Origin: a virus
IMG/VR virus record: IMGVR_UViG_3300047550_006186
Reading direction: 5' to 3' (one strand)
DNA length: 64,000 nt
Part shown: positions 5,653-47,897 of the stretch, one piece after another
Layout: every line of letters starts with the position of its first letter
Position numbering within the stretch: the first letter of the stretch is position 1
The notes under the pieces: generated by a model
Told to the model about the DNA's origin: nothing
What the model saw: the letters and a program-made list of their open reading frames with translations, nothing else
Database searches by the model: none
Translations under genes and position numbers: made by a program

Positions 5653-5693
5653 GTTATATTATTATCAGCCAAAAACACAGGAGAAATTGGCAA

Positions 5694-12814: not shown

Positions 12815-12842
12815 TTGACAGCCATACTAAACCTGCTATAAT
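12815..12842 (+). promoter_or_regulatory. Sigma70-like promoter TTGACA-N16-TGcTATAAT
   Basis: Perfect consensus hexamers plus extended -10; promoter + 5'UTR (about 50 bp) duplicated at 13303. Confidence 0.6.
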
Positions 12843-13302: not shown

Positions 13303-13330
13303 TTGACATTCCCTCCAAACCTGCTATAAT
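13303..13330 (+). promoter_or_regulatory. Sigma70-like promoter TTGACA-N16-TGcTATAAT (duplicate of 12815 promoter/UTR)
   Basis: aacctgctataatgggcacaccaagcaaggaa(c/t)actgaacatgagcaa shared with 12828-12877. Confidence 0.6.
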
Positions 13331-17017: not shown

Positions 17018-17596
17018 TTAAGAATGATTGACCTTGGCAACCTTTTCATTACCCCTGGTCCAGGCAGCCACACCCAAGATTGCTGCAAAGGAAAGATGAA
17101 TAAATCCTCCATTCTGCAAACTGAGACTGGTCCAAGGAGTATAGCTGATGTTCATGCCCATACCATGCAACAGAGCAGGCAACACCATGGTCAAAGCAGG
17201 AAATACCACAAAATCTACAAAACAGATCAGCATATACAACCAAGCAGCAGCTGGTCTCCAATAGCTTTTGACCCAATGTTCTTCCTTTTGGGGATTGGCA
17301 GCTTGATTGGCCATCATCTGTCCAAAAAACTGAGTAGCTTGGCTATTATTGTTGGTATTCATGTTGTTCATGTTGTTCATGGAACTGTTCATGGTATTCA
17401 TGCCGCCCATACCACTGTTCATGGAATTCATAGAATTAGGAACACTGGTGTTGACAGTACTGTTTACTGGTGGACTGCTCACAGGTGGTTTGGGTGGTGG
17501 TAGCTTGGGTGGTGCAGTAACAGGAGGGGTGTCCTCCATGTTTGCTCGGGGTCTCATTGGTGGATCGTCATCATCATCCATGGGATTGGCAGGCAT
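17018..17596 (-). CDS. Membrane protein with N-terminal Pro/Asn/Met-rich low-complexity region and C-terminal 2-3 TM segments (possible holin)
   Basis: C-terminal WLYMLICFVDFVVFPALTMVLPALL + GGFIHLSFAAILGVAAW; located directly after endolysin and spanin genes. Confidence 0.35.
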   Translation of the reverse strand: MPANPMDDDDDPPMRPRANMEDTPPVTAPPKLPPPKPPVSSPPVNSTVNTSVPNSMNSMNSGMGGMNTMNSSMNNMNNMNTNNNSQATQFFGQMMANQAANPQKEEHWVKSYWRPAAAWLYMLICFVDFVVFPALTMVLPALLHGMGMNISYTPWTSLSLQNGGFIHLSFAAILGVAAWTRGNEKVAKVNHS

Positions 17597-17650
17597 AGTG
17601 TGCTTCCTTGATTAATAATCCTATTTAAAAACTATCTAGTAGATAGTTAA

Positions 17651-18034
17651 CTACTCAGATTTTTTGGGGGCAGATGATTGAGCTTGTTCATTGTATTTGC
17701 TGGTGAGTGTACGATAATAGACAATTATACTTTGTTGTTGTTCAATGTATCTACGCAGATCTGCCACATTGAGTGCCATGTTCTCATAGTCTCTGGTTGA
17801 TATAGCAAAGAATACGGGATTGTTTCCACCCTGGTTGGTTCGTAATTCCGATAAAAAGCTTTCCAAATTGTCCTTGTTGACTACTTTGAATTGTACAGGC
17901 AACATGGTAACTCCGTTGGGATCTGCAGTCTTGGCAAGATCTATCTCCAAAGGGTGAGTTGTCACAGTTATGCCTTGCCCTCCTCCACATGCAACAAGCA
18001 AAAGACAAATCGAGATTACAGATAATATTTTCAT
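17651..18034 (-). CDS. Outer-membrane lipoprotein, probable o-spanin
   Basis: Signal + lipobox LLLVAC; start codon overlaps i-spanin stop (ATGA); 127 aa is large for an o-spanin. Confidence 0.5.
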   Translation of the reverse strand: MKILSVISICLLLVACGGGQGITVTTHPLEIDLAKTADPNGVTMLPVQFKVVNKDNLESFLSELRTNQGGNNPVFFAISTRDYENMALNVADLRRYIEQQQSIIVYYRTLTSKYNEQAQSSAPKKSE

Positions 18035-18621
18035 TAAGATCCTCCTGATCGTTGTGGGGGTCTAGGCGGAGGCTGAGGACTGCTTTTGGTGCTAGTGTTA
18101 GTAGCGGCCGGCTTTGTTGCTGGCGTAGAGTTGGTGCTAGTGCTAGACACATCAGGTTTATTACCACCCAATGGCTGTTTGACATCACTGGTATCCACTG
18201 TTGTAGCAGGCGGTGTTGGTGGCGCGGGGCGATCTTTGGGAGATGTGACAGTTTCAATATCTCTAAATGCTTGAGTGGTGGCTCTGTTGACCTTGGCTTC
18301 CAGGTCACTTGCATTGTTTCTTGCCATGGCTTGTAAATCTGCTTTGCGTAGTTTTGTTTCCAATTCTCTACGAGTGGTTTCTGCATTGGCAAGACTTTGT
18401 TGCAGTTCAAACATAGCAGCATTTTGTCTCTCTGCTGCCTGTTTTTGAGCCGCAATTGTTTGTTCTTGTAGTTGGACGGCAGTTTCTAACTTGGCTTTGT
18501 CTTTGTTGAGTTGCATGATAGTATCCTGACTACTGGTGTAATACCAATAGCCAAGACCCACCATACATGCCATCACAGCAAATTGAATCAACACGACTTT
18601 GCCCATGATGCCACTCAACAT
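18034..18621 (-). CDS. i-spanin-like protein (Rz-like)
   Basis: N-terminal TM, long coiled coil, Pro-rich C-terminus; directly downstream of endolysin. Confidence 0.6.
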   Translation of the reverse strand: MLSGIMGKVVLIQFAVMACMVGLGYWYYTSSQDTIMQLNKDKAKLETAVQLQEQTIAAQKQAAERQNAAMFELQQSLANAETTRRELETKLRKADLQAMARNNASDLEAKVNRATTQAFRDIETVTSPKDRPAPPTPPATTVDTSDVKQPLGGNKPDVSSTSTNSTPATKPAATNTSTKSSPQPPPRPPQRSGGS

Positions 18622-18626
18622 GATAA

Positions 18627-19319
18627 TTATCCTTGTAAGGCTGCTAGGCAGCGTTGTAGTCGAGCATCTCGGTCAGATAATCCGTGAGTTCCACCGTTAA
18701 TCTTCTTGGTGATGGTCAAGTTATCCAAATGATCAGCATAATCATTCAAATGACGGCTGTTCCAGAACCAGCATGCACTGCGCACCGCACCATCCATTTC
18801 ACAAAGGATATCTGGTGTTTCCAAAAGAACATTGCTGTCACCATAAAGGGTTTCGCTGCAAGTTGTATAGTTGGTCTTGCCAGTGATTTGAATAATTCCA
18901 CGGCCTCTAAACTTCCAACCATCACCGCTGTGCTCATCGCCATTGCCCATGCGGTTGGCATAAACTCTGTTGGCAATTTTTTCTGGCTGACGTTGATATT
19001 GCATAGCTAGATCATCAGTGGGGAAATATTTGCCAAAAACTCCACGCAGTCCTTTGGCACTGTAGTTGAGATTTTCACTTACAAACTTGAAGTCACCGCT
19101 TTCGTGCCCCATTTGTGCCAACCAACAGGCCACCCTATTGACAGTGTTGATCTCATAATCTGGCAGAACGCTCACAATGTGTTCGTACCATTCATTTATA
19201 TGGCCATTATTGATACAATGCGCCAATTTTTCAGGTGTAAAATCAAAATCAAAACTCATATGAGCACCTTTTGGTTTATATTGACTGTATTTATGGACGG
19301 GTGAGATAGCTGCTGGCAA
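18627..19319 (-). CDS. Endolysin, glycoside hydrolase family 19 (chitinase-like lysozyme)
   Basis: GH19 signature LAQMGHESGDFKFVSENLNYSA...YANRMGNGDE...GDGWKFRGRGIIQITGKTNY; start may be the internal ATG (MSFDFDF, 19259). Confidence 0.75.
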   Translation of the reverse strand: MPAAISPVHKYSQYKPKGAHMSFDFDFTPEKLAHCINNGHINEWYEHIVSVLPDYEINTVNRVACWLAQMGHESGDFKFVSENLNYSAKGLRGVFGKYFPTDDLAMQYQRQPEKIANRVYANRMGNGDEHSGDGWKFRGRGIIQITGKTNYTTCSETLYGDSNVLLETPDILCEMDGAVRSACWFWNSRHLNDYADHLDNLTITKKINGGTHGLSDRDARLQRCLAALQG

Positions 19320-20751: not shown

Positions 20752-21510
20752 ATGAGAGAGATCAACAAACACAATACAACCTTGTTTTTGATGCAAGTGC
20801 TTGCACATGGTGTGCTGCTGAGCATGCTAGTTTGGGCCAGTTGGCCACTTTGGTTTTTCACCTGCATAGGTTACTTCCTTCTGAGTTGTGTGGGTACTAG
20901 TATTGGTTATCACAGGCTATTTGCCCATGGAAGCTTCCAATCACCCAAATGGTTTGAACAATCCTGCTTGCATCTGGGCAACATGGCATTAGTGGGCAGC
21001 AGCATCAGCTGGACGGCCAGCCACAGAGCGCATCATCACCACTCGGATCAAAGCCCAGCAGACACCCACAGTCCACACCACCATCCCTGGTATCGCATAA
21101 TCCTGTTGGCCATGTTTCAACCCGTAAGCATGCGATATGTGAAAGATCTAGCACGCAACCATGATCATGTTTGGTGGCACAAAAATTATTTTCTAGTTCA
21201 TGGTGCGGTGTGGGGTCTAGGATTGCTTCTGGCACCACAATTCACGGCAGCATTTGTCATTGCACCACAAGCACTAACCTGGATTACGGGTGCCAGCTTG
21301 AACTGGGTGAACCACAAATGGGGCTATAGCAATCACAACACATGCGATCACAGTACCAACAATTGGTTCTACGCATTGGTATTTTGGGGAGAAGGCTGGC
21401 ACAACAACCATCACCACAATCCCAAACGATCCTATTTTGGTGAGCGTTGGTGGGAGATTGACGTTTCTGGCATGATTATCCGAATGATTGAAAAAAAGAA
21501 GTTGACTTAA
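20752..21510 (+). CDS. Delta-9 acyl-lipid/fatty-acid desaturase
   Basis: Three His boxes HRLFAH, HRAHHHHSD, EGWHNNHHHNP; 4 TM architecture. Confidence 0.7.
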   Translation: MREINKHNTTLFLMQVLAHGVLLSMLVWASWPLWFFTCIGYFLLSCVGTSIGYHRLFAHGSFQSPKWFEQSCLHLGNMALVGSSISWTASHRAHHHHSDQSPADTHSPHHHPWYRIILLAMFQPVSMRYVKDLARNHDHVWWHKNYFLVHGAVWGLGLLLAPQFTAAFVIAPQALTWITGASLNWVNHKWGYSNHNTCDHSTNNWFYALVFWGEGWHNNHHHNPKRSYFGERWWEIDVSGMIIRMIEKKKLT

Positions 21511-21587: not shown

Positions 21588-22652
21588 ATGAACAAAGAAT
21601 ACGATTTTCTGGTCTTCATTGGGCGGATGCAGCCACCCACTGTGGCACACTGCTCCATTATCGAGCAAGCTCTCCTAAAATCAAACAAAGTGATAGTGGT
21701 GCTGGGAAGCTGCAATAGTGCTCGCACCCTTCGCAACCCTTTCACATATGATGAGCGAGTTCTCATGCTGCGACGGTGCATGACCAACTCACAAAACGAA
21801 CAGATTATCACAGTGCCCATGGACGACTACACCTACAACGATGAAATGTGGGTGGTCAAGTTGCATGAGACTGTGAACCGTGCAATTTTGGAAAACATTC
21901 CTGGCAATTCACAATATTGCTATAACAACGGTATGATCAACCAGCGTGTGGGCCTGATTGGCCACGCCAAGGACAACACCAGCTACTACCTCAACCTGTT
22001 TCCTGAATGGGGCAGCGAGAACGTGCGCAATATTCCAGGAGTTGATGCCACCAGCCTGCGTGATGCATTTTTTGCACAAGGCATGCAGAGTGTGAACGAC
22101 ACGCTGGTGCGGCCTGGTGTGCGTGAATTTCTGGAGGATTTCATCCAGACCCTTGCTTACATCAACCTGCGCGAAGAGCGTGAATTTGTGGCCAAGTACA
22201 AGAAAGCCTGGGAAGCTGCGCCCTACCCGCCCACGTTCGTCACGGTTGATGCTGTGGTGGTGCAGAGCGGCCACGTGCTGTTGGTCAAGCGGGGAGCCAA
22301 TCCTGGCAAGGGGATGTGGGCCATGCCTGGTGGGTTCCTGGATCCCCTGGAGACCCTGGAACAGGGTGCCATGCGAGAGCTGCGGGAAGAGACCAAGCTC
22401 AAGGTGCCCGAACCTGTGCTGCGTGGCAGCATTGTGGCGCGGGAAACATATGATCATCCGCACCGCAGCAGCCGTGGCCGCACCATCACCACAGCATTTT
22501 TGATCCACCTCAAGCCTGCTGCCAAGTTGCCCAAGGTCAAGGGCAGTGATGATGCAGCAGAGGCTGATTGGGTCAGAATTGCTGACCTGGACCCGCACAC
22601 CTTGTTTGAAGACCACTACCATGTGATCATGAATTTGGTACGCAGGATCTAA
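21588..22652 (+). CDS. natV: Bifunctional NMN adenylyltransferase / Nudix ADP-ribose pyrophosphatase (NatV/NadM-Nudix)
   Basis: N-terminal nucleotidyltransferase (VFIGRMQPPTVAHCSII) + Nudix box GGFLDPLETLEQGAMRELREETKL. Confidence 0.8.
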   Translation: MNKEYDFLVFIGRMQPPTVAHCSIIEQALLKSNKVIVVLGSCNSARTLRNPFTYDERVLMLRRCMTNSQNEQIITVPMDDYTYNDEMWVVKLHETVNRAILENIPGNSQYCYNNGMINQRVGLIGHAKDNTSYYLNLFPEWGSENVRNIPGVDATSLRDAFFAQGMQSVNDTLVRPGVREFLEDFIQTLAYINLREEREFVAKYKKAWEAAPYPPTFVTVDAVVVQSGHVLLVKRGANPGKGMWAMPGGFLDPLETLEQGAMRELREETKLKVPEPVLRGSIVARETYDHPHRSSRGRTITTAFLIHLKPAAKLPKVKGSDDAAEADWVRIADLDPHTLFEDHYHVIMNLVRRI

Positions 22653-22790
22653 AAAATATCCCCTGTGCTGGGGATAAAAAACCACTTTACAAGCAATTTT
22701 TTTGGTGTTATTGTGGTAACATAAAGCACATGGACTAACAGCCTAGGATAGACCAGGGCTGAAACAACAACTGCAAAGGAGTTTTGCACC

Positions 22791-24206
22791 GTGGATAATG
22801 CTAACATTCTACTAACTGCCATGTCACTCAGGGCAGACAGTTACAAGTATTCTCACCATAATCAGTTACCTCCTGGTACAACCACCATCAACAGTTACAT
22901 TGAAAGCCGCGGTGGCAAGTTTGCCAACAGTGTGTTTTTTGGCCTGCAGGCCTGGATCAAGAGCTACCTGCTGCGACCGCTCACCAAGGCAGACATTGAT
23001 CTCACAGAAGAGATTGTGCTGGCTCATGGCGAGCCCTTCAACCGCGAAGGTTTTGATCGCATCATCAACGTGCATGGTGGCCATTGGCCAGTTGTGATCG
23101 AAGCTGTGCCTGAGGGCACTGTTCTGCCAGTTCGCAATGTGCTGGTGCAGATCCGCAACACGGATCCCACGATGCCCTGGGTAACCAGTTTCCTGGAAAC
23201 TGCTCTGCTGCGTGGTATTTGGTATCCCACCACAGTGGCCAGTCTCAGCTGGCATTGCAAGCAGATGATCCTGGATGCTTTGCGCAAGAGCAGCGAGGAT
23301 GCTCTAGGTCAGATCAACTTCAAGCTGCATGATTTTGGTGCACGAGGAGTCAGCAGCGGTGAAAGTGCTGCCCTGGGTGGCATGGCCCACCTGGTGAATT
23401 TCATGGGCACAGACACTGTGGAAGCTCTGGTGGCTGCCCGCATGCTGTATGGCGCTCAGATGGCAGGGTTTAGTATTCCTGCTATGGAACACAGTACTGT
23501 TACCAGCTGGGGTAGAGAGAACGAGGCATCAGCCTATGAAAACATGGTACGCAATTATGCTCGTCCAGGCAGTTTGGTGGCATGTGTGAGTGACAGCTAT
23601 GACATCTGGAACGCTGTCAGTAATATTTGGGGTGGAAATCTCAAGAGTCTGGTAGAAAACAGTGGTGCTACAATTGTTATTCGTCCCGACAGTGGTGACC
23701 CTCTCACTGTGCCTGTTCGTGTAGTTGAGAAGCTGGGTGAAAAGTTTGGCTTTACTATCAACAACAAGGGGTTTAAGGTTCTACCCAATTGTGTAAGGGT
23801 GATCCAGGGAGACGGTATTACAATTGACAGCATTCCAGTCATTCTCAAGAATCTACTGGATGCAGGATGGAGTGCTGATAACCTTGCCATGGGTATGGGT
23901 GGTGGACTTCTGCAAATGGTCAATCGAGACACAATGAAGTGGGCTATGAAGGCCAATGCCATGGAAATCAATGGAACTTGGAAGGATGTGTTCAAGGATC
24001 CAATTGATGACCCGGGAAAGACTAGCAAGAAGGGGGTGCTCAGTCTGGTCCGAAGCAATGGTATTGGCAGCAGCACATGGATTACCAAGCGGCGTGATGA
24101 GATGGCTATGGGTGAACAGGATCTTCTTGTGCCAGTGTTCAAAAATGGTGAGCTGCTGGTAGACGTAACCTTTGATCAGGTACGTGCCAACAGTCACCGA
24201 GGGTGA
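22791..24206 (+). CDS. nadV: Nicotinamide phosphoribosyltransferase (NAMPT/NadV)
   Basis: GTG start after AAGGAG SD; DSYKYSH motif and NAPRTase-family length (471 aa). Confidence 0.85.
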   Translation: MDNANILLTAMSLRADSYKYSHHNQLPPGTTTINSYIESRGGKFANSVFFGLQAWIKSYLLRPLTKADIDLTEEIVLAHGEPFNREGFDRIINVHGGHWPVVIEAVPEGTVLPVRNVLVQIRNTDPTMPWVTSFLETALLRGIWYPTTVASLSWHCKQMILDALRKSSEDALGQINFKLHDFGARGVSSGESAALGGMAHLVNFMGTDTVEALVAARMLYGAQMAGFSIPAMEHSTVTSWGRENEASAYENMVRNYARPGSLVACVSDSYDIWNAVSNIWGGNLKSLVENSGATIVIRPDSGDPLTVPVRVVEKLGEKFGFTINNKGFKVLPNCVRVIQGDGITIDSIPVILKNLLDAGWSADNLAMGMGGGLLQMVNRDTMKWAMKANAMEINGTWKDVFKDPIDDPGKTSKKGVLSLVRSNGIGSSTWITKRRDEMAMGEQDLLVPVFKNGELLVDVTFDQVRANSHRG

Positions 24207-24218
24207 TTTTTGATCAGG

Positions 24219-24250
24219 TCAAACCGCAGTCTACTGTAGACTGCGGTTTT
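24219..24250 (+). terminator. Rho-independent terminator after nadV
   Basis: aaccgcagtcta-ctg-tagactgcggtt then ttctgtg. Confidence 0.6.
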
Positions 24251-24395
24251 CTGTGACAATTATTGAGTGCATTAAACCTTTTCTTTTAGAATATCAAGTG
24301 TTTTTTGTTTGACACAAGCATGAGTTATATGCATTCTAAGAGTGCTACATTTGAGAGATAAATTATCTCTCAAATGTAGTTCGAAGGACATACTC

Positions 24396-24953
24396 ATGCA
24401 ATCACGATTTCAATCTTGGCACGAGCTAAGAGATTTAATTGCTCAGCGTAGTCTGATCAAAAATCAGAATTTCAAGCTCAGTAGTGGTTTAGATAGCAAT
24501 TATTTCTTTAACATGAAAATGACCATGTTAAATCCACAAGGTATTAATTGGATCACTGATGCTATCTTGGATATATTAGAAGGTTTACAATTCTCAAGCG
24601 TGGGTGGCATGGCAGTAGGTAGTGTGCCAATCACATCTAGTATTACTACCAAAAGTTTGTTTCGAGACAAATATTATCCATCTTTTTTTGTTAGAAAAGA
24701 AATTAAAGATCATGGGTTTCAAACCAAGATTGATGGTTACTGTGATCCAAATACAAAAGTGGTATTGATAGAAGATGTCACCACAACTGGTAAAAGCATT
24801 CTTCATGCAGTCAACGCTGTTGAACAAATTGGATGCACAGTTGATACGGTGATCACAGTTGTAGACAGGTTGGAAGGGGCAAGCTTAAATCTTTCCTCTA
24901 GAGGTATTAATTTGATTCCATTGTATATAAAAACAGATTTTGAACATGCATGA
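24396..24953 (+). CDS. Type I phosphoribosyltransferase (orotate PRTase-like)
   Basis: OPRT-like FKLSSGLDSNYFFN and PRPP-binding VVLIEDVTTTGKSI; AAGGA SD. Confidence 0.6.
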   Translation: MQSRFQSWHELRDLIAQRSLIKNQNFKLSSGLDSNYFFNMKMTMLNPQGINWITDAILDILEGLQFSSVGGMAVGSVPITSSITTKSLFRDKYYPSFFVRKEIKDHGFQTKIDGYCDPNTKVVLIEDVTTTGKSILHAVNAVEQIGCTVDTVITVVDRLEGASLNLSSRGINLIPLYIKTDFEHA

Positions 24954-25003: not shown

Positions 25004-25581
25004 GTGAACTACCACGCCCTAAAGGTCTGTGGCTTCCTGCTTAATCGTAGTGGCTGACATCTCACCCCAATGAGTGAGAATATCTGTCATCACATCCACA
25101 GGCGCTTGGGGCAGTTCCTGCCCTGCATGATCTATTGTCCATTGTTGATGTCCCCAGTTGCGGATGTTCACTGCTGCATTCGTGTCCCTGTGCTGAGTGA
25201 TTCCACATTCATCGCAATGATATTCTCTTTGCTTGAGATCCATGTGACTTTTGCGGGTGCCACATGCACTACAGGTCTTGCTACTGGGTAGCCACTGATT
25301 GATCTTGACAAGATAGTGGCCTTGCATTTGGCATTTGTAGGCCAATGCACCAATCAACATAGCCCAACTGGCATCAGCTATGCACTTGGCTGCGGGCTTG
25401 CTTTTTCTTTTCATCTCATCAATTTTCAGTGTTTCAACTGACACCAGGTCATGTGATTTGGCTATTCTCGCACTTGTCTGATCCTATAGCGATATCGCTG
25501 TTTTATAAATCTATTTGTATAATCTATTCAAAAAGCCGCTATCCATCCAGGGGCTAAAGCACCCTGGCTTTCCGCGGCGGG
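25004..25581 (-). mobile_element. Internally deleted (about 580 bp) copy of IS200/IS605-family element A
   Basis: RE (gtgaactaccacgccctaaagg...), 3' 430 bp of tnpB and LE (ccgctatccatccagg...ttccgcggcggg) with junction tctgat|cctatagcgatatcgctg. Confidence 0.6.
25019..25444 (-). pseudogene. tnpB: TnpB C-terminal fragment (141 aa)
   Basis: About 90% identical to C-terminus of TnpB copies at 39727 and 50182 (zinc-finger CSACGTRKSH...CDECG). Confidence 0.6.
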
Positions 25582-25595
25582 AGATAAGTAATTGT

Positions 25596-26114
25596 ATGAC
25601 CACACTGAAAGAGTTGACTTGGGAGAGTCATCAAAAAGCTGAGCAAACTGAGATCATGCAACAGTTGTTGAGCAACCAAATTACCAACAGGATGTATTGC
25701 AATTTGGTGTATACAAAATATCTTGTGTTTGCACAATTGGAAAACAGGATAGATTTTGTTACACCATGCTTGCATAGAGCACAAGCTGCCTTGAATGATT
25801 GGCAACAAATGCAATGCAGTTTGCCCAAATGTGTTCCCAGCTTGGAAACATATTTGGAATTGTTGCGAAAATTGGACAGTCATTTTGTATGGGCACATGT
25901 GTACGTGCATTATCTAGCCCCTTTGTATGGAGGACAGATCATCAAAAAGGTTATTCAACACAGATTTCCCACCAGCATGTATGAGTTTGATGACCCTATG
26001 AATGCAATAGCAGAAGTAAGATCAAAGGTGAATTTGGAGATGGCTGAGCAAGCCAATCTGGCATTTGATTATACTACAACATTTTTAAATGAACTTTATC
26101 TTGAGGAAAACTGA
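25596..26114 (+). CDS. ho1: Heme oxygenase
   Basis: LKELTWESHQKAEQTEIMQQL (proximal His helix) and HVYVHYLAPLYGGQIIKKVIQ ([21 protein letters not shown] in HO-1). Confidence 0.75.
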   Translation: MTTLKELTWESHQKAEQTEIMQQLLSNQITNRMYCNLVYTKYLVFAQLENRIDFVTPCLHRAQAALNDWQQMQCSLPKCVPSLETYLELLRKLDSHFVWAHVYVHYLAPLYGGQIIKKVIQHRFPTSMYEFDDPMNAIAEVRSKVNLEMAEQANLAFDYTTTFLNELYLEEN

Positions 26115-26743
26115 TGACTAATTTTATCCAGCTTGTAGACAAAACTGGTCACGCCTTTGAGCAAGTGATCCGCCAACACACCACCTATTTGCAATGCATT
26201 CCCACAGAGGATTTTGGTTGGACAAACTATAGATGGAGCAGCAGACAGTTTAGATTGGCACATGTGGAAAAATTCCAACAACCCAAGTTCAGTGTGTTGC
26301 ACATGGTGATATTTCCGCACGTTTACGATCCCAATCCTATTTTTGGATTTGATATTATTGCCAGCGACACAAAAGCCACAGGTGTATTTTTTGATCTTAG
26401 TCCCACTGTGGGACCAAGCTGCCAATTGTCTACTCAAACATGGCAAGATCCTAGAAATCGACCAGAATGGGGAGATATTTTCAGTGATTATTGGATAGCA
26501 TGTAGACCCTCCTTGGATGAAGCCCAACAAATCTGTAATTTGGCTGTGGACACATTACACCAATATCTGATTGATCTGAGTACAACTGCCAGCAGTTCCA
26601 AGATCAGAGATATAATTCAAGCACAAAATAGATACAGTCTACAACAGCGCAAAAATGAACACACTACCCGTGTGATCCTAAAACTTTTGGGAGAACAAAA
26701 AGGCCAACATTTTATTGAAAACATCCTGTTTCCCACCATTTGA
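26114..26743 (+). CDS. Ferredoxin-dependent bilin reductase (PebS/PcyA/PcyX family)
   Basis: FDBR family segment KFSVLHMVIFPHVYDPNPIFGFDIIASDTKATGVFFDLSP; ATGA overlap with ho1. Confidence 0.7.
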   Translation: MTNFIQLVDKTGHAFEQVIRQHTTYLQCIPTEDFGWTNYRWSSRQFRLAHVEKFQQPKFSVLHMVIFPHVYDPNPIFGFDIIASDTKATGVFFDLSPTVGPSCQLSTQTWQDPRNRPEWGDIFSDYWIACRPSLDEAQQICNLAVDTLHQYLIDLSTTASSSKIRDIIQAQNRYSLQQRKNEHTTRVILKLLGEQKGQHFIENILFPTI

Positions 26744-26986
26744 CACACTTGTCAACTATTGGCACAGGGCGGGGCTGGGATTTGGATACAGATGACCTTT
26801 TGTCTATTTGTGAGAGGTATTGGTGACATGCATTGCACATGCCCCATTCTTCCCCAGGGAACATATTAAAATTCCTGAGATGCAACAAGTGTGGGACAGC
26901 AGTTAAATGTTGCTGCCAGAAATCTGGCCTACTGCAGAGTGACATAATGCTTGTAATATGACAAAAACAGTTTATATTAGCCCTAC

Positions 26987-28411
26987 ATGCACGGAGTACC
27001 AGAAATGAAAAATGTCAACAAAACACATACTAAATCAGTGGACAGGGACGTTGCAAAGATCTACTTGCAGGAAGTGAGTCAAAACAAACTGCTCACTCAT
27101 GCACAAGAAATTGAACTCAGTCAGCAAATTGAAAATGCCAAACAGAATTTGATAGGTGTATTGTTTGCTATTCCCATGTGTGTGAAATATTTTAATCAAC
27201 AGATCATGTTGATTCTCAATGGCACAAGTGATGATTGTGTGGCATTTGATTGGGAAACAGTCAACAGTCAAAGCTTGATGCAAGAGATCACACATTTACA
27301 TGACATAATTGAATTGTATATGCAAAACAATTGTGTGGATTTGAATGCCAGGTTGCAAATTGGTGAAAAAATCAGCCAACTGCCTCTCAAGCTGGCATTT
27401 TTTGATATTGCCAGCAAGCCATTGCTGGACAAAGGCAGCAAATTGAGCCAAGTGCAGGGAGAATTCATGCGATTTGCTGCCAAACATAATATTAGCCGAC
27501 AGGTGTTTTTGGACAATCATTTGGAGCGTGTGCCTTGTTCCACATGGCAATCTTTTGTTGCCACACATGAATGTGTGGTGAAAAACTATCAACAACAAAT
27601 TACAGCCATTTGTGAACCCACTGGTTTGACTGTCAGTGAATTGACCACTGCGCTGGAAAAAATCAGGCAGTGGCAGAAAATCAAAGACAATAGTGTGGAA
27701 ACCATGCTCAAAAGCAACCTACGTTTGGTGGTAAGTGTGGCCAAAAAATATATCAGTGTGAGCAACACTCCCATGTTGGATCTTGTGCAAGAAGGCAATA
27801 TGGGACTGCTCAAGGCTATTGAAAAATACAATTGGAGACTGGGTTATAGATTCAGCACATATGCAACTTGGTGGATCAAGCAATGTGTACTCAAAGCCCT
27901 AAATGAACAACATCGTATCATTCGTGTGCCCAGTCACATGACACAACTGGTCAAAAGAGTGGGCAGAGCACAGGAAGAATTTTTAGCTTCGCATGGTTAT
28001 GAAGCTGGTATAGACGATCTAGCACAAATATTGGAAGTGGACTGTGAACAAATCCGCAAAGTATACACAGTTGCCCAGGGCACCATCAGCTTGGAAACAC
28101 CTATTGGTCAGGAAGAAGATCAGAACCTAGGCAGTGTGTTGGAAGATGTGGATCATGTTAACGCTTTTGACCTATTGGCACATGTGGATGCTCAAGAAAA
28201 CATGAGCAAAATATTGGCTCTACTCACTCCCAAAGAAGAGCGTGTGATTCGCATGCGATTTGGTATTGGCCTGGATAAAGAAAGCACTTTGGAAGACATC
28301 GGCACTGTGATGGGTGTCACACGAGAACGTATTAGGCAAATTGAACTCAAAGCTTTGCAAAAGCTCAAAAGCCCTGAATTTGCCGATAAAATTCAACAGG
28401 CCTGGCAGTGA
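26987..28411 (+). CDS. Sigma-70 family (group 1/2-like) RNA polymerase sigma factor
   Basis: Region 1.2 (AKIYLQEVSQNKLLTHAQEIEL), region 2 (NLRLVVSVAKKYISVSNTPMLDLVQEGNMGLLKAIEKYNWRLGYRFSTYATWWIKQ), region 3 (IRVPSHMTQLVKRV), region 4.2 (LEDIGTVMGVTRERIRQIELKALQKL); likely start ATG 27005 after GGAG. Confidence 0.85.
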   Translation: MHGVPEMKNVNKTHTKSVDRDVAKIYLQEVSQNKLLTHAQEIELSQQIENAKQNLIGVLFAIPMCVKYFNQQIMLILNGTSDDCVAFDWETVNSQSLMQEITHLHDIIELYMQNNCVDLNARLQIGEKISQLPLKLAFFDIASKPLLDKGSKLSQVQGEFMRFAAKHNISRQVFLDNHLERVPCSTWQSFVATHECVVKNYQQQITAICEPTGLTVSELTTALEKIRQWQKIKDNSVETMLKSNLRLVVSVAKKYISVSNTPMLDLVQEGNMGLLKAIEKYNWRLGYRFSTYATWWIKQCVLKALNEQHRIIRVPSHMTQLVKRVGRAQEEFLASHGYEAGIDDLAQILEVDCEQIRKVYTVAQGTISLETPIGQEEDQNLGSVLEDVDHVNAFDLLAHVDAQENMSKILALLTPKEERVIRMRFGIGLDKESTLEDIGTVMGVTRERIRQIELKALQKLKSPEFADKIQQAWQ

Positions 28412-28418
28412 ACCACTG

Positions 28419-28441
28419 TGGGCCCCTTGGGCCCACAGCCT
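28419..28441 (+). terminator. Hairpin after sigma-factor gene (no U-tract)
   Basis: ctgtgggcc-cctt-ggcccacag. Confidence 0.3.
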
Positions 28442-28496
28442 CATGTTCCAACTGTTAATTTTGACAGTGTGCAATATTATATTGCACACTCTTCAC

Positions 28497-28742
28497 ATGC
28501 GTAAACGTATTATGGGGTCTACCTCTGCTCAAGCCAAAAAACCTGCCAATAAAACTCTAGTGTATTGTACTCTCAATGATAGCAAATGCAAGGGACTGAT
28601 TGTTCTCAAAACTGAATATCAGCTCACAGTACAAATGCCCACTGGGTGTGTTTTGCACATGGTTCGCCCACAAGGACGCAAACTGTATGTGTGTTATGCA
28701 GGTCAACTGGAATTTGTCAGTGATGGATGGGCTACAACCTAG
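28497..28742 (+). CDS. Hypothetical small basic protein (81 aa)
   Basis: ATG in frame of ORF 28314..28742; preceded by perfect palindrome gtgcaatat-tat-atattgcac (28468-28488). Confidence 0.35.
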   Translation: MRKRIMGSTSAQAKKPANKTLVYCTLNDSKCKGLIVLKTEYQLTVQMPTGCVLHMVRPQGRKLYVCYAGQLEFVSDGWATT

Positions 28743-30030: not shown

Positions 30031-30078
30031 GGTTGTCTCCGGAGAATTTGTAGGTTTTGTGAAGTTATTTATTTATTT

Positions 30079-30438: not shown

Positions 30439-31044
30439 ATGAACATTTGTGCATTGGCATTGGTGTTACTGCTGGATGTAAGCAGCAGTGTGACTCCCGA
30501 ACGTTATGCTTTACAAAAACAGGGGTTGTTGACAAGCTTTCAAGATCCCAGCATACAAAGATTGATGCTCAGTCAAAATCCTGGAGGCATGGCTGTGACA
30601 GTTTTTGAATGGAGCACAGGAGCACAACAGGTAATCCCCTGGCATCACATTCAAACTCCAACTGATGTGGAGAAATTTGTTGAGCAGATCAACAATTTAG
30701 ATAGAGCCCAAGTTGATGGAGTCACAGCCATAGGCGTGGCACTGGAAGCAGGTATTGCCAGCTTGGAACAAGCACCATGTGTGCCTGAAAGAAAAATACT
30801 GGATGTGAGTGGAGATGGTGCCAACAACAGCGGCATTGATCCATCGCACTTGCGAGACCAGGCCCAAACTCAAGGCATAACGATAAATGGTTTGCCAATT
30901 TTGAATCCAAATGAACCTGACCTTGAAATTCATTATAGGAAACAGGTTGTCACCATGGATGGTTTTGTGATAGCCAGCGAAGGGTTTGAAGATTTTGCTA
31001 GAGCATTGCGACGCAAACTCATACTGGAAATAGCTGGGCAATAA
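30439..31044 (+). CDS. DUF1194 / vWA-like domain protein
   Basis: LALVLLLDVSSSV (MIDAS-like DxSxS) and DVSGDGANNSG. Confidence 0.55.
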   Translation: MNICALALVLLLDVSSSVTPERYALQKQGLLTSFQDPSIQRLMLSQNPGGMAVTVFEWSTGAQQVIPWHHIQTPTDVEKFVEQINNLDRAQVDGVTAIGVALEAGIASLEQAPCVPERKILDVSGDGANNSGIDPSHLRDQAQTQGITINGLPILNPNEPDLEIHYRKQVVTMDGFVIASEGFEDFARALRRKLILEIAGQ

Positions 31045-35377: not shown

Positions 35378-36694
35378 CTAGTACAAACAAGCAGCGATAG
35401 CATAAATCAGTATCCCGCTCTTTGTAGATGAAAATCTAGAAACAGCACTCGTTACCGAACTCAGCTGAACACGATACTTCAATTTCGCGTTTTTGATCGA
35501 GTTGTGAAAATCAACCCATGAAGTGATTTTGGTGATATCAAGCCCGTCTTTCTTCCATTGATTCAGTGGTTTGATGTCATCCAACTTCAGTGGCGGATAC
35601 ATACACAGTGATTTTTGATATTTGTAGTTGACCCTACGGGCGATTTCCCAGGCCGCGGCACAGGGGTCAGGTAGTTCCGAATGCAAGAGGTTACCAATTG
35701 TGCTCGAGTAAGCGCAGTTGACCTCGGTTACTTCAATGCCCAGTTGATCCGATAGTTTTGTGATAGTCCATTGAAATAGCTCCCTATTCCATTGGTTGTT
35801 GACCAACCTGTTGAAGTTGCGACCTTTTTTGGCATCTCTGGCACCCATTGTTAGCTGTTCGATGCCAATTTCGCTAACTCGATAATGCCTAGCCAATCGA
35901 ATGATTGCGTGAGCTATTTCCTTGGTCTCGTGATCTCGCTTGTTGTCATCAACTCTTGATTCTTTGCTCCAAGCGTAAACCTTTGATTTGACTAGATGTT
36001 CTCGTCCATCTTTGAAATCAATTATTGTGATACCAATATAATTTGGGTTTTGGTCAATGCCCATTATGCGATAGTTCAAATGGTTAAGGATTATTGGTTG
36101 TTTTTCTTGTTCGAAACTCAAATAAATTTGACCTCTCTTGAGTTGGACTTGAATTGGGATTGATCCAATATTGTTAATCAGATGCTGGATTTGTTTGCGT
36201 TGATTGCGACCAACTTGAAATGGGATTTCGACTCTTGTGTGTTTATTTGGCTTGTAGATCAAAATATCGTCAGCTAACTTACTGAAATCAAACAATCTAT
36301 TTGACTTTTGAACAGCTTCGCCTTGTAGCATCATTGGTCTGAGTCGCAGTTGGTGCCATTCGGATGTGGTGATTTTCCCACTAGATCGCTTGAAAAAATT
36401 GGCTCTGCTGCCCCACACAATTTTGGCAGATTTGCGTTGACCTGATTTGATCTGTGATTGGTGCGCTGCATATTGGGTTTGTGCATCTAGGATCGCACAT
36501 TGAGCTATCCAGGAATTCACCGAGTCTTCGTTGTTGGATTTAGGATTTGACCATCTCTCTTTGACCAGAGATCTGATTTCTTTTTGCTTCAACCCTTGGC
36601 TAGTTCGCTCGTAAGCATACCGAAATATTGCAGAGTACTGCAATTGATAGGGCAAAAGCACAATCGGCGTTGAAAGTTTGAGTGTGGTAATCAT
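35378..36694 (-). CDS. tnpB: IS607-family TnpB (OrfB)
   Basis: 438 aa; RuvC-like/zinc-finger C-terminus, IS607-type accessory protein adjacent to serine recombinase. Confidence 0.65.
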   Translation of the reverse strand: MITTLKLSTPIVLLPYQLQYSAIFRYAYERTSQGLKQKEIRSLVKERWSNPKSNNEDSVNSWIAQCAILDAQTQYAAHQSQIKSGQRKSAKIVWGSRANFFKRSSGKITTSEWHQLRLRPMMLQGEAVQKSNRLFDFSKLADDILIYKPNKHTRVEIPFQVGRNQRKQIQHLINNIGSIPIQVQLKRGQIYLSFEQEKQPIILNHLNYRIMGIDQNPNYIGITIIDFKDGREHLVKSKVYAWSKESRVDDNKRDHETKEIAHAIIRLARHYRVSEIGIEQLTMGARDAKKGRNFNRLVNNQWNRELFQWTITKLSDQLGIEVTEVNCAYSSTIGNLLHSELPDPCAAAWEIARRVNYKYQKSLCMYPPLKLDDIKPLNQWKKDGLDITKITSWVDFHNSIKNAKLKYRVQLSSVTSAVSRFSSTKSGILIYAIAACLY

Positions 36695-36707
36695 TATTGC
36701 TACTTAT

Positions 36708-37310
36708 TTATGCTTGTTCTGTAGAAACCGCATCAATTAGGCATTTTTTTGCGCTTTTTAGTACTTTGCGTCTATTGCTGTACATCTTCATTGAGAAATG
36801 ATGAATGATTGAAATTAGATCTTGTGTCAATTCAGTTTCAAACGGAGTTATCTCGGCGTCATTTATGACAACAATTTTTGTGTTATATCGATCGAATAGT
36901 CTGGTGAAATAATCAAAACCAAATCGAGTAAGTCGATCTCGATATGTCACATAGACTGTGTCTACATTACCGGACATAACTAGATCCAATAACTCATTGA
37001 ATCCTTTACGATTTTCGTTCATGCCGCTGGCTATATCACTGATCGTCTGAACTGGATATCCTTGTTTAATAACAAAGTCTTGCACCAATTGCTGTTGACT
37101 AATAAGATCAGACTCCTGTTTCTTGTCACTGACTCGAGTGTAAGCTACGTGTATCCTCGGTCCTGATGTTGATTTGATTTCTGGGTAATAGAGATAACTG
37201 CTCTTCCCGACCCTAATGAAGTCAACTGTGTTGTTAATTCGCCAGTTCCGCAAAGTCTGTTTGCTAATGGCATATTTTTTCATAAATTGGCGTGCTGTGA
37301 TATATTTCAT
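36708..37310 (-). CDS. tnpA: IS607-family serine recombinase (TnpA) with N-terminal MerR-like HTH
   Basis: MerR-like HTH (ISKQTLRNWRINN) + resolvase catalytic domain (AYTRVSDKKQ...VYVTYRDRLTRFG). Confidence 0.75.
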   Translation of the reverse strand: MKYITARQFMKKYAISKQTLRNWRINNTVDFIRVGKSSYLYYPEIKSTSGPRIHVAYTRVSDKKQESDLISQQQLVQDFVIKQGYPVQTISDIASGMNENRKGFNELLDLVMSGNVDTVYVTYRDRLTRFGFDYFTRLFDRYNTKIVVINDAEITPFETELTQDLISIIHHFSMKMYSNRRKVLKSAKKCLIDAVSTEQA

Positions 37311-37359
37311 ACTTGTATTTATAACTTTTTTGCGCTATAAATGCAAATAACAATATAAT

Positions 37360-38286
37360 ATGGAACAAGAAGGTGAATCACAAGTGGATGGAAAAAAAGA
37401 TAGAGCACTGGGAGCCTTTGTGGGCTTGGCAGTTGGTGATGCACTAGGCGCACCCGTGGAATTTAAAGAACCTGGAGAATTTTCTCCAGTCAAGGATTAT
37501 GCCTACAGCTATGTGTGGCAAATACCACCCGGCTATTGGACAGATGACACCAGCATGGCTGTGTGTTTGGCCGAAAGCATCCTACACAAGAATGATGTGC
37601 TGCCAGACGACATTTTGCAGAGGTTTGTACGCTGGTATGTTCATGGTGAGAACAGCCCTACCGGTAGATGTTTTGATATCGGCAGCACAACCAGAAGCAA
37701 TATCAAGCGTTACATTGACCAAGGAGTATATACACCTGCTCCCAACATTGCGTGGCAGAGTGGCAACGGTGGTATAATGAGATTGAGCCCCGTTGCAGTT
37801 AGATACTGGCAGGATCCAGAACTGGCTGCTGAGTTGAGCATTGTGCAAAGCCAAACAACTCATGGAAGTGATGAATGTGTCAAATGCGCCGCAGATTTGG
37901 GAAAGCTTTTGGCAAGAGCTATTCAAGGACAGCTAATTTGGCAAGAACTAGTTGATCAGCTAGGACAAATTTCTACCAACCAGATCAGCAACAGCGGGCA
38001 AGCCAGCACAACCTTGTTGGCAGCCAAATGGTGTGTGGCTACCACAAGCAATTTTGAAGATGCTGTGTGCAAAGCTGTGAATTTGGGTGGCGATGCTGAC
38101 ACAATTGGGGCTGTGACTGGCCAGATAGCTGGTGGCATTTATGGCTTGAATAGTATTCCAGAACGATGGAAACAAGGACTATATGATTATGCAAGGTTGT
38201 TGGATCTTGCTCAGAGGTTGTTTGATAAAGAATACCACAGGGGCGGGTGTTGGCTGGCTTTCCGCGGCAGCCCCCAAGACCCATGA
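37360..38286 (+). CDS. ADP-ribosylglycohydrolase (ARH/DraG family)
   Basis: GAFVGLAVGDALG, TDDTSM, GGDADTIGAVTGQIAGGIYG. Confidence 0.8.
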   Translation: MEQEGESQVDGKKDRALGAFVGLAVGDALGAPVEFKEPGEFSPVKDYAYSYVWQIPPGYWTDDTSMAVCLAESILHKNDVLPDDILQRFVRWYVHGENSPTGRCFDIGSTTRSNIKRYIDQGVYTPAPNIAWQSGNGGIMRLSPVAVRYWQDPELAAELSIVQSQTTHGSDECVKCAADLGKLLARAIQGQLIWQELVDQLGQISTNQISNSGQASTTLLAAKWCVATTSNFEDAVCKAVNLGGDADTIGAVTGQIAGGIYGLNSIPERWKQGLYDYARLLDLAQRLFDKEYHRGGCWLAFRGSPQDP

Positions 38287-39710: not shown

Positions 39711-40996
39711 TGTGAACTACCACGCCCTAAAGGGCTGTGGCTTCCTGCTTCATCGTAGTGGCTGATATCTCACCCCAATGGGTGAGAATATCTGCCATCA
39801 CATCCACAGGCGCTTGGGGCAGTTCCTGCCCTGCATGATCTATTGTCCATTGTTGATGTCCCCAGTTGCGAATATTGATGGCTGCATTCGTGTCTCTGTG
39901 CTGTGTTGTGCCGCAGGCGTCGCAATGGTATTCTCGCTGAGCGAGGTCCATGTGACTTTTGCGGGTGCCACATGCACTACAGGTCTTGCTGCTGGGTAGC
40001 CACTGATTGATCTTGACAAGATGATGACCTTGCCTTTGGCACTTGTAGGCCAATGCACCAATCAACATAGCCCAATCCGCATCTGCTATGGCCTTGGCTG
40101 TGGCCTTGCTCTTGCGTCTCATCTCATCAATTTTCAGTGTTTCAACACACACCAGGTCATGTGATTTGGCTATTCTCGCACTTGTCTGATGTATATGGTT
40201 AGTTCTTTGGCAGCGAACCAGATCATGGGTTCGGGCCAGTTTTTGTTTTGCTTTTGTTCTATTCCTACTTGCTTTTTGTTTTCTGGATAGCTTGCGTTGT
40301 AACTGTTTGATACGTGCTTGTTTCTTCCCCAATGGCTTGGGATTTGCAACTAGCTCACCAGTTGATAGTGCTGTGAATTTGCTGTTGACATCCACACCCA
40401 CTGGGTTGGTTATGTTTTGAACCAATGGCAATTCAGTCACATCAACCACAAATGAGGCATACCAACCACCTGGTGTTTGAATCACAGTCACACCCTTAAA
40501 CTTGGGAAGATCTCGATGGAGTACAATCTTGATATCACCAATCTTGGGTAGATATAGCTTGTTGTTGTCAACTCTCACGTTTTGTTGATATCTAAAACTT
40601 ATAGGAGTTGTGTATTTGCTTTTGAACCGTGGGAATCCAGCACCTGTCTTTTTCATATTTTTCAGTGCTGTATCCAAGTCACTTATGCTCTGTTGTAGTA
40701 CTTGACTGTAGGTATCTGATAACCATTTGTTGTGTTTCTTCAATTCAGTCAGTTGTTTGCACATATCAAACTGCCAAACAAACTTTTTAGTATTGGCATA
40801 TTCATCAATGTTGATCTTGAGGAAATGATTGTATAGATATCGCACTGCTCCGCCCACAGAACGCATGTGTTGTTCCTGTTGTGGGGTTGGATAAATTCTA
40901 TAGCGATATCGCTGTTTCATAAATCAATTGATATAATCTATTCAAAAAGCCGCTATCCATCCAGGGCCTAAAGGCGCCTGGCTTTCCGCGGCGGGA
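39711..40996 (-). mobile_element. IS200/IS605-family element A, copy 1 (tnpB only, no tnpA)
   Basis: RE gtgaactaccacgccctaaagggctgtggcttcctgcttcatcgtagtggctgatatctcacc; LE ...ccgctatccatccagggcctaaaggcgcctggctttccgcggcggg; near-identical to copies at 50165 and 63009. Confidence 0.75.
39727..40920 (-). CDS. tnpB: TnpB (IS605 OrfB family, RuvC-like + Zn finger)
   Basis: 397 aa; MKQRYRYRIYPT N-terminus, C-terminal CSACG...CDACG zinc finger; 3 near-identical copies. Confidence 0.85.
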   Translation of the reverse strand: MKQRYRYRIYPTPQQEQHMRSVGGAVRYLYNHFLKINIDEYANTKKFVWQFDMCKQLTELKKHNKWLSDTYSQVLQQSISDLDTALKNMKKTGAGFPRFKSKYTTPISFRYQQNVRVDNNKLYLPKIGDIKIVLHRDLPKFKGVTVIQTPGGWYASFVVDVTELPLVQNITNPVGVDVNSKFTALSTGELVANPKPLGKKQARIKQLQRKLSRKQKASRNRTKAKQKLARTHDLVRCQRTNHIHQTSARIAKSHDLVCVETLKIDEMRRKSKATAKAIADADWAMLIGALAYKCQRQGHHLVKINQWLPSSKTCSACGTRKSHMDLAQREYHCDACGTTQHRDTNAAINIRNWGHQQWTIDHAGQELPQAPVDVMADILTHWGEISATTMKQEATAL

Positions 40997-46840: not shown

Positions 46841-46949
46841 AGTCTAGAGCGGATGGATGTTGGCGCATCGTGATCCGCAATCTTATTTATATCCTTGACA
46901 TCACACCATCGATTGTCTATTATATTTGAGAAATAGATTTGTTGATAGT

Positions 46950-47771: not shown

Positions 47772-47868
47772 TGGTTGCGACTCCTGTTATATATTGGTGG
47801 TGGGACAGCCTGGAGAACTCCGTGCCGGGTTTTTTGAAGTTCCTACCTTCAAAATTACCACAAGTATT

Positions 47869-47897
47869 TATGCTTGACTTTGAAGCAAGATTACGAT
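47869..47897 (+). promoter_or_regulatory. Sigma70-like promoter TTGACT-N17-TATAGT upstream of tRNA-Leu
   Basis: cttgactttgaagcaagattacgatatagt. Confidence 0.4.

Follow-up and report, generated by a model that had tools for sequence, protein, structure and literature searches.

A phage-lineage-specific, RpoD-like sigma factor gene without region 1.1 and its predicted role in redirecting host RNA polymerase

The virus record IMGVR_UViG_3300047550_006186 from IMG/VR, of which a stretch of 64,000 nucleotides was analysed over its full length (the window), belongs to a huge, uncultured phage of aquatic origin and encodes a sigma70-family sigma factor. Our reading, to which we give a probability of about 0.7, is that this gene codes for a functional, phage-lineage-specific sigma factor that derives from a primary (group 1, RpoD-type) ancestor, lacks region 1.1 and would direct the core RNA polymerase (RNAP) of the host to phage promoters. 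The descent is part of that same estimate, its deep placement being that of a simple neighbour-joining (NJ) tree. Domain content, residue conservation, purifying selection, phage context, clade structure, promoter motifs and gene linkage were established directly, and from these sequence features we infer core binding, the promoter set, timing and competition with the host sigma. The coordinates of the features are collected in Table 1.

Domain structure of the sigma factor

A preliminary description of this DNA had claimed a complete sigma70-family sigma factor on a phage. The open reading frame (ORF) is intact and uninterrupted from 26987 to 28411 (474 aa as listed) and lies in a window of phage genes; the protein itself is not complete, region 1.1 being absent. 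Translation from the ATG at 27005 gives a product of 468 aa and 53.5 kDa, and this ATG is the likelier start codon: it is the one used by most relatives, a GGAG precedes it by about 9 nt, and a promoter-like -10 element ends at 26978.

All four Pfam sigma70 domains (regions 1.2, 2, 3 and 4) scored above their curated gathering cut-offs. The claim that these regions are all recognisable was borne out; that they are close to the primary-sigma consensus holds less well for the region 2.4/3.0 stretch, which is not fully consensus and reads WWIKQCVLK compared to WWIRQAITR in Escherichia coli. Region 1.2 keeps the equivalents of Y101 and L/M102, and the recognition helix of region 4 (T-R-E-R-I-R-Q-I-E) is the same as in E. 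coli; R596 is replaced by Q and H600 by S. Region 2 carries the family-specific changes Y421W, R423L, R436K, T440L and R441K and keeps its core-binding and -10 melting residues.

Regions 1.2 and 2.1 are separated by a non-conserved region (NCR) that measures 175–194 aa across the family, is without the acidic insert of E. coli, is helical in the AlphaFold model and matches PF04546 (Sigma70_ner) in the relatives. The top NCBIfam model was the proteobacterial RpoD PRK05658 (359 bits), with aa 116–470 aligned to positions 262–626 of 631, and because this alignment extends into those residues the roughly 180 aa between regions 1.2 and 2.1 can be identified as the NCR of a proteobacterial primary sigma. 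The presence of regions 1.2 and 3 agrees with the label of a group 1/2-like sigma given in the preliminary description; nevertheless, the protein stayed below every RpoD, RpoS and cyanobacterial sigma cut-off of NCBIfam. It did not pass the equivalog models for RpoD (NF004208, 359.3 bits vs 555; NF006666, 265 vs 572; TIGR02393, 257 vs 354) or RpoS (TIGR02394, 221.3 bits vs 378.7; NF004207, 217.6 vs 394), and the scores of the cyanobacterial sigma model (264 bits) and of RpoS (221 bits) were both lower than that of RpoD. Its PHROG match was phrog_351, an RpoD-like sigma family. The nearest solved structure by sequence was RpoD of Caulobacter crescentus (7YE1), followed by SigA of Bacillus subtilis and sigma70 of E. 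coli, and the E. coli sigma70 of holoenzyme and open-complex structures could be superposed with the AlphaFold2 model (predicted local distance difference test, pLDDT, 76.6) over approximately 460–490 columns.

Region 1.1 was absent from the window protein and from all 117 relatives, with 14–20 residues before region 1.2 (14 from the likelier start), where the 71 cellular homologues have 126 (median). In the relatives, the end of the upstream gene lies 49–60 nt from the start of the sigma gene, a space too small to encode region 1.1, and we therefore regard its absence as real.

Two other identities were rejected. MzaA (the MZA anti-phage sigma) was excluded by a score of 274.7 bits against a cut-off of 800 for NF041931; the PADLOC match to MzaA was confined to the shared region 2–4 part (aa 228–462) and no neighbouring gene matched PADLOC. 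A late sigma of the T4 gp55 type was ruled out by the presence of regions 3 and 4 and by assignment to phrog_351 and not to the gp55 family.

Table 1. Positions of the sigma gene, its domains and other features in the window.
Feature	Position	Strand	Remarks
Sigma70-family gene	26987..28411	+	Short N-terminus, region 1.2, NCR, region 2, region 3, region 4
Region 1.2	27056..27136	+	aa 24–50; PF00140 Sigma70_r1_2, 36.9 bits
NCR (1.2 to 2.1)	27137..27691	+	About 182 aa; RpoD model alignment extends into it
Region 2	27707..27916	+	aa 241–310; PF04542, 63 bits vs gathering score 24
Region 3	27953..28168	+	aa 323–394; PF04539, 52.2 bits; H455 and R451 retained
Region 4	28214..28369	+	aa 410–461; PF04545, 57.6 bits vs gathering score 24.1
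Putative sigma-gene promoter	26951..26978	+	TTGTAA-N16-TATATT; 9/12 match; -10 ends 27 nt before ATG 27005
GC-rich hairpin	28416..28438	+	CTGTGGGCCC-CTT-GGGCCCACAG; directly after the sigma stop codon; no U-tract
Small basic protein gene	28512..28742	+	76 aa, pI 9.2; predicted SH3-like beta-barrel
Perfect consensus extended -10 promoter	12815..12842	+	TTGACA-N13-TGC-TATAAT; candidate target of host and/or phage sigma
Second perfect consensus extended -10 promoter	13303..13330	+	Same 10.5–14.5 kb array
ATAAATA/CATAAATA motifs	19288-19294, 30066-30076, 37316-37322, 46884-46890, 47865-47871, 49804-49810, 52063-52069	-
rIIA and rIIB	3550-7082		Phage genes
Minimal DNA polymerase III alpha	8126-9925	+	599 aa; PF07733 and PF17657; NTPase and finger domains only, without PHP domain
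Holin-like gene	17018-17596	-	Lysis cassette (17018-19259)
Two Rz-like spanins	17651-18034, 18034-18621	-	Lysis cassette
Endolysin/chitinase-like gene	18627-19259	-	Lysis cassette
Fatty-acid desaturase-like ORF	20752-21510		Call based on the desaturase annotation of the syntenic gene in relatives
NadM-type NMN adenylyltransferase fused to Nudix	21588-22652	+	NAD salvage block (21588-24953)
NAMPT	22821-24206	+	NAD salvage block
Phosphoribosyltransferase	24396-24953	+	NAD salvage block
Heme oxygenase and ferredoxin-dependent bilin reductase pair	25596-26743	+	Directly upstream of the sigma gene
IS200/IS605/IS607-type elements	25019-25414, 35378-37310, 39727-40920, 48676-49794, 50182-51375	-

A family of sigma factors in large phages

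A search of 5.8 billion proteins recovered full-length relatives in two tiers, all metagenomic, 460–490 aa long and with the same domain layout. Tier 1 consists of about 69 clusters at 48–84% identity and tier 2 of at least 50 clusters at approximately 38–41%, giving a family of about 120 sequence clusters from genomes of up to about 490 kb. A 99%-identical protein (P0121) is encoded by an 89-kb JGI contig. Relatives were found on viral contigs of 270–490 kb with phage genes; the family contigs reach 440, 462, 485 and 493 kb, and the 440-kb contig carries T4-type spanin, tail-fibre and homing-endonuclease domains around its sigma gene. A scan of IMG/VR with the single protein returned no relative, and the members there, on viral contigs of 310 kb and 453 kb, were recovered with an alignment query.

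Neither the sigma gene (blastn) nor the surrounding 24 kb (megablast) had a nucleotide match in 50,697 deposited phage records, and no full-length relative of the protein was found among the deposited phages of INPHARED. The best genuine matches among deposited phages span only regions 2–4 at no more than 40% identity and belong to Microcystis phage MaAM05 (358 aa), S-CBS3 and Kyanoviridae phage S-H34 (254 aa). The top tblastn "phage" match, Acinetobacter phage MD-2021a (INPHARED CAKLQH020000002.1, locus L007), was rejected as a mislabelled fragment of a bacterial chromosome. It carries sdhCDA, gltA, an rpoD of 628 aa, lipB, cysG and serS, and it is the source of false "phage RpoD" matches.

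The preliminary description had proposed a phylogenetic placement. In an NJ tree the phage sequences formed one clade in 56 of 60 bootstraps (tier 1 in 60 of 60). This clade lay outside all sampled bacterial primary sigmas, inside no bacterial class and never with the Alphaproteobacteria in any of the 60 bootstraps. The monophyly of the clade excludes, as far as sequences can tell, a recent capture of the gene from a host. That the gene is a recently captured fragment of a host rpoD, carried as a passenger or auxiliary gene, or that the window is a bacterial contig, is extremely improbable and is contradicted by several results. Such a capture would agree with the hidden Markov model (HMM) of the family, which scored highest on alphaproteobacterial RpoD (440–475 bits, compared to at most 400 for all others of the 80 bacterial rpoD loci that we retrieved for comparison), and with the best sequence match in the PDB, Caulobacter RpoD. 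However, the identity to any cellular RpoD was at most about 40%, the gene has kept its synteny in the phage contigs and is under purifying selection there, and the window itself has rIIA/rIIB, an endolysin, spanins, a holin and homing endonucleases.

Compared to an 83%-identical relative, the whole sigma gene gave a proportion of nonsynonymous differences (pN) of 0.095 and of synonymous differences (pS) of 0.709. Nonsynonymous differences were fewer in regions 2–4 (pN 0.048) than in the NCR (0.154). The protein is thus under strong purifying selection over its whole length. Synonymous divergence (dS) from this relative was saturated, and pN/pS alone is meaningful.

DNA- and core-contacting residues

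Residues were compared in E. coli numbering between the 117 phage homologues and 71 cellular primary sigmas. Those that bind core (D403, Q406, E407, N409) did not vary in the phage family, and neither did N383, L386, F427, T429, Y430, W433, W434, Q437 and H455 or, in the -35 helix, T583, R584, E585, R586, R588 and Q589. The preliminary description had claimed intact -10 and -35 recognition. This was borne out for the readers of the -35 element (R584, E585, R588, Q589) and the residues that melt the -10 element (Y430, W433, W434, Q437), all of which are the same as in E. coli sigma70, and judged by these residues the -35 reading and strand-opening machinery of the phage sigma is intact.

It was not borne out at seven other positions that are replaced across the family (T440, R441, R423, Y421, E458, R596, H600). 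T440 is L in all 68 tier 1 sequences and I or F in tier 2, compared to T in 69 of 71 cellular sigmas. R441, found in all 71 cellular sequences, is K in 117/117 phage homologues; R423 (69/71 in cells) is L in 108/117; Y421 (66/71) is W in 115/117; and E458 (70/71) is D in 110/117 and Q in the window protein. R596 and H600, each kept in 69 of 71 cellular sigmas, are variable in the phages. In E. coli sigma70, Q437 and T440 are the readers of the -12 base pair, H455 and E458 are the readers of the extended -10 TG motif, and the 593–600 patch is a contact for class II activators, lambda cI and anti-sigmas. On this comparison the edge of the -10 element that is read as duplex, together with the patch for regulator contact, is family-specific. 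The changes in the region 4 patch and at the residues that contact -12/-13 and TG probably adjust which promoters are preferred and confer insensitivity to host regulators.

A possible alternative, which overlaps with our reading, is that the consensus early promoters are left to the host sigma70 and that the phage sigma, its specificity shifted, serves a distinct class of middle promoters. In that case T440L/I/F, R441K, R423L and E458D/Q would alter the reading of the -12/-13 pairs and of the TG motif. Such a shift would agree with the established roles of Q437/T440 and H455/E458 in E. coli, with the replacement in 108–117 of 117 phage homologues of residues that are T, R, R and E in 69–71 of 71 cellular sequences, and with the good -35 but degenerate -10 elements of the promoters of the sigma gene itself. 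It is opposed by the retention of Q437, H455 and R451, by the TA with which every candidate -10 still starts, and by the motif search described below.

Promoters and other regulatory elements

The transcript of the sigma gene would start at about 26985 from its putative promoter. A TTGACA-like -35 element with a 16-bp spacer was found approximately 52–57 nt before the start codon in the window and in four relatives (loci L001, L172, L005 and L171), and farther upstream in three others (L088, L163 and L091). Across the family, these promoters combine a good -35 with a degenerate TAnnnT -10 (TAGATT, TATTGT, TATCTT, TAATTT); in the 440-kb phage a near-perfect TTGACA-N13-TGG-TATTAT precedes the sigma gene. 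Because a promoter of sigma70 type precedes the gene in most loci, it is most likely switched on by the host holoenzyme, and the host sigma is probably needed first.

The many TTGACA/TATAAT promoters that the preliminary description had reported were confirmed. The pattern TTGACA-N13-TGN-TATAAT, searched over the whole window with up to two mismatches, gave 13 matches where 0.75 were expected (none of 100 shuffles reached 13), 11 of them on the + strand. Bacterial rpoD loci (848 kb) had no match with one mismatch or fewer. Of the 13 matches in the window, seven fall within 10.5–14.5 kb (10562, 10836, 12815, 13303, 13835, 14176, 14475) and mostly precede short ORFs; others are at 3330, 5633 and 43728, and an additional near-consensus promoter with a 17-bp spacer is at 12550. 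Many promoters of the array share an upstream tGG (tGG-TTGACA-N13-TGc-TATAAT, 16-bp spacer). By its sequence the array looks like an early-gene region, and its promoters look like classical strong early promoters usable by the host primary sigma; they are candidate targets of the host sigma, the phage sigma or both. The preliminary description had proposed that the phage sigma could drive them independently of host sigma availability, a point that these results do not support.

The only other word enriched upstream of genes was ATAAATA/CATAAATA, present in 11 of 70 upstream regions where one was expected and 16 times in the whole window where 8.7 were expected, with one copy preceding the endolysin gene. 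ATAAATA resembles the T4 late promoter, so that a late factor of the gp55 type may be encoded in another part of the genome. No window ORF other than the sigma gene matched a sigma profile.

Several of these results weigh against the reading of the protein as the factor that directs host RNAP to the phage promoters. The host primary sigma alone could serve all of the consensus promoters, as is the case with T4 early promoters. K-mer enrichment of the upstream regions gave no second sigma70-like class with -35/-10-like motifs, a result that also opposes a shifted specificity, and the one other enriched motif, ATAAATA, points to a gp55-type factor. The promoter specificity of the phage sigma may differ from TTGACA/TATAAT because T440, R441, R423 and E458 are changed although near-invariant in cellular primary sigmas. 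Finally, NJ is a simple method and the phage branch is long, so that long-branch effects on its placement are possible.

The hairpin that follows the sigma stop codon lies in a 55-nt stretch with a folding energy of -24 kcal/mol, and strong hairpins of unrelated sequence follow the stop codon in most loci, among them L170, L001, L172, L005 and L171. Its putative role lies in stability or in the formation of the 3' end. At 28461-28489 (+), in the gap that separates the sigma gene from the next gene, a TTGACA is followed by the perfect palindrome GTGTGCAAT-ATTAT-ATTGCACAC, which is kept in the 83%-identical relative (L170) and may be an operator or an RNA hairpin. The TTGACA at 28461 was rejected as a promoter as it has no usable -10.

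A linked small gene and the proposed mode of action

At 13 of 13 distinct loci of the family, the sigma gene is followed on the same strand, after 30 to 3,600 nt, by a gene for a small basic protein of 71–80 aa. These loci include tier 2 loci that share no other neighbour and two loci that were reached starting from the small protein. The small gene was absent from the bacterial rpoD loci (0 of 80 positive) and from IMG/VR loci with non-family sigmas. The protein has 203 homologues, all metagenomic, a motif of N-[KR]-x-[YL]-V-x-C-[TS] ... K-G ... L-P-[TS]-G ... G-x-L-E-F-x-S-D-G, and no family in Pfam, PHROG or PADLOC. A cognate anti-sigma, for which the preliminary description had suggested a search, was not recognisable among the four downstream and neighbouring ORFs, none of which matched Pfam, PHROG or PADLOC. 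At five tier 2 loci (L163, L171, L091, L162 and L089) an antisense gene for an Fe/Mn superoxide-dismutase-like protein (approximately 180 aa) lies between the sigma gene and the small gene, and a weaker second copy of the small gene is found about 9 kb downstream at L163 and L171.

We propose that after infection the host holoenzyme would transcribe the sigma gene early from its own sigma70-type promoter. The phage sigma would then bind host core RNAP through the conserved surfaces of regions 2.2, 3.2 and 4, and the resulting phage holoenzyme would initiate at phage -35/-10 promoters, with TTGACA read by the unchanged region 4.2 and TAnnnT melted by the unchanged region 2.3. In the absence of region 1.1 the grip of the phage sigma on core is expected to be firmer than that of the host primary sigma, which could shift polymerase from host to phage promoters. 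A higher affinity for core is probable because E. coli sigma70 without region 1.1 forms a far more stable complex with core and stays bound to it (PMC12478191).

The same stable binding would suit a protein that acts mainly as a competitor or decoy, shutting down host transcription by tight core binding or by titration of host regulators and anti-sigmas, possibly with the linked small protein as a helper. The loss of the R596/H600 patch, which host activators and anti-sigmas use, and the obligate linkage of the small gene also agree with such a role. We consider it unlikely, as the DNA-reading residues of regions 2.3, 2.4 and 4.2 are perfectly kept in a family that has diverged to 38% identity.

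More tentatively, and well short of probable, the sigma and the small SH3-like gene may form a two-part module for host-polymerase takeover specific to a clade of huge aquatic phages. In such a module the sigma without region 1.1 would outcompete the host sigma and stay on host core, the altered -12/-13/TG residues would give a phage-specific preference, and the small protein would bind sigma or RNAP, where it would either assist as a co-factor or act as an inhibitor able to tell the host holoenzyme from that of the phage. A comparable case is T7 Gp2, whose action depends on the region 1.1 of the host.

Genomic context of the window

The gene content identifies the window as phage DNA, with rIIA/rIIB, a minimal polymerase III alpha and a lysis cassette in addition to ClpP, four tRNAs and homing and HNH endonucleases. 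No gp23, gp55, gp33 or family B polymerase and no RNAP subunit were seen within the 64 kb. The label "T4-type" is plausible for this phage, and only plausible because the window has no T4 core genes; rIIA/rIIB, the minimal polymerase III alpha and the ATAAATA motifs are indirect support for it.

Upstream of the sigma gene the order is NadM-Nudix (nicotinamide mononucleotide, NMN, adenylyltransferase), NAMPT, phosphoribosyltransferase, TnpB fragment, heme oxygenase and bilin reductase, the first three forming a block for salvage of nicotinamide adenine dinucleotide (NAD). The order NadM-Nudix, NAMPT, x, heme oxygenase, bilin reductase and sigma recurs in relatives with a 58%-identical sigma on contigs of 72–271 kb. 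Among deposited phages the bilin reductase matched Pelagibacter phage Mosig best (33.5% identity) and cyanophage PcyA less well, a weak pointer to a Pelagibacter phage. The host may be non-cyanobacterial, perhaps alphaproteobacterial. The sigma leans to the Alphaproteobacteria by HMM score only, the NJ tree placing the clade in no bacterial class, and the plasmid relatives of the TnpB copies in the window are only about 37% identical and occur in unrelated taxa.

The insertion sequence (IS) elements include two closely related TnpB copies of 397 aa, a third transposase and the truncated TnpB fragment, which sits between the NAD genes and the heme oxygenase. An IS607-like pair, judged by eye from the N-termini, consists of a serine-recombinase-like ORF of 200 aa and an ORF of 438 aa. 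The load of RNA-guided nuclease genes in the window is unusual for a phage. A protein of 843 aa (58961-61492, +) has major-vault-protein shoulder and repeat domains and an SPFH-like domain, no PHROG match, and a gene in a GC-rich stretch (0.55–0.58 compared to about 0.44 for the window). Accessory genes at 37360-38286 (+), 42230-43657 (-), 30439-31044 (+) and 56094-58420 (+) encode products that include an ADP-ribosylglycohydrolase, an amidoligase-like protein, DUF1194/VWA, a saccharopine-dehydrogenase-like enzyme and a PP-loop ATPase.

Comparison with known systems and significance

T4 gp55 is a minimal sigma that consists of region 2 only and does not read a -35 element. Like gp55, which acts with gp33 and the sliding clamp, the window protein would be a phage-encoded specificity subunit for host RNAP; unlike gp55, it also contains regions 3 and 4. 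Outside the window, the genome may encode a factor of the gp55 type alongside it.

The preliminary description treated it as unexpected that a T4-type phage should encode more than gp55; the literature makes it less surprising. All T4-related "group 2" jumbo phages are stated to encode sigma factors, and RpoD-like, "complete" ones are described for this group (Iyer et al., 2021; PMC7824862), a huge phage has been described with its own sigma70 and with the host sigma70 targeted by CRISPR (Al-Shayeb et al., 2020; PMC7162821), and the T4-like cyanophage S-H34 (Kyanoviridae) has an annotated sigma70-family gene. In the published view, jumbo phages without an RNAP recruit host RNAP via RpoD-like sigmas (PMC7824862, PMC13282480). 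RpoD-like sigmas in large phages are thus already known, and the window gene is a further example and not a new principle. It shares with these sigmas a large phage as carrier, a multi-domain RpoD-like architecture and presumed recruitment of host core, and in the 64 kb of genome examined it likewise comes without a phage RNAP. Like the group 2.2 jumbo phages, for which a minimal DNA polymerase III alpha is described (Iyer et al., 2021; PMC7824862), the window encodes such an alpha subunit, together with rIIA/rIIB. In a limited literature search, we found no description for the published jumbo-phage sigmas of a loss of region 1.1 with the NCR retained, of fixed substitutions at T440, R441, R423, Y421 and E458 or of a linked small gene.

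Among cellular sigmas, E. coli sigma70 and Caulobacter RpoD (7YE1) have the same regions 1.2, NCR, 2, 3 and 4 and share the -35 helix, W433/W434, Y430, Q437 and the core-binding residues. Unlike proteobacterial RpoD, the window protein has no region 1.1, a shorter NCR and the changes T440L, R441K, R423L, Y421W, E458Q, R596Q and H600S. RpoD-like regions 2–4 and the absence of region 1.1 are shared with the group 2 sigmas (RpoS, cyanobacterial SigB-E), which are dispensable to the cell, and with their phage copies (MaAM05 rpoD, Synechococcus phage S-CBS3); however, the group 2 sigmas are without a large NCR, and the rpoD of Microcystis phage MaAM05 (358 aa) keeps Y421, R423, T440, R441 and E458, unlike the window family. 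An engineered protein, the region 1.1 deletion construct of E. coli sigma70 (PMC12478191), has the same domains 1.2, NCR, 2, 3 and 4, and the way in which it binds core tightly and stays on during elongation hints, by analogy, at the behaviour of the phage sigma.

For annotation, the family is a warning against taking such sigma genes for host contamination or for marks of a cellular contig. RpoD-like sigmas are assumed to redirect the host polymerase in many large phages without an RNAP, and this family is a well-defined test case for that assumption. It is also a natural experiment on the roles of region 1.1 and of the -12 and TG contacts, and it may reveal a new small RNAP- or sigma-binding protein. 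Its most worthwhile aspects are the region 1.1 deletion, made by nature, and the small gene linked to the sigma.

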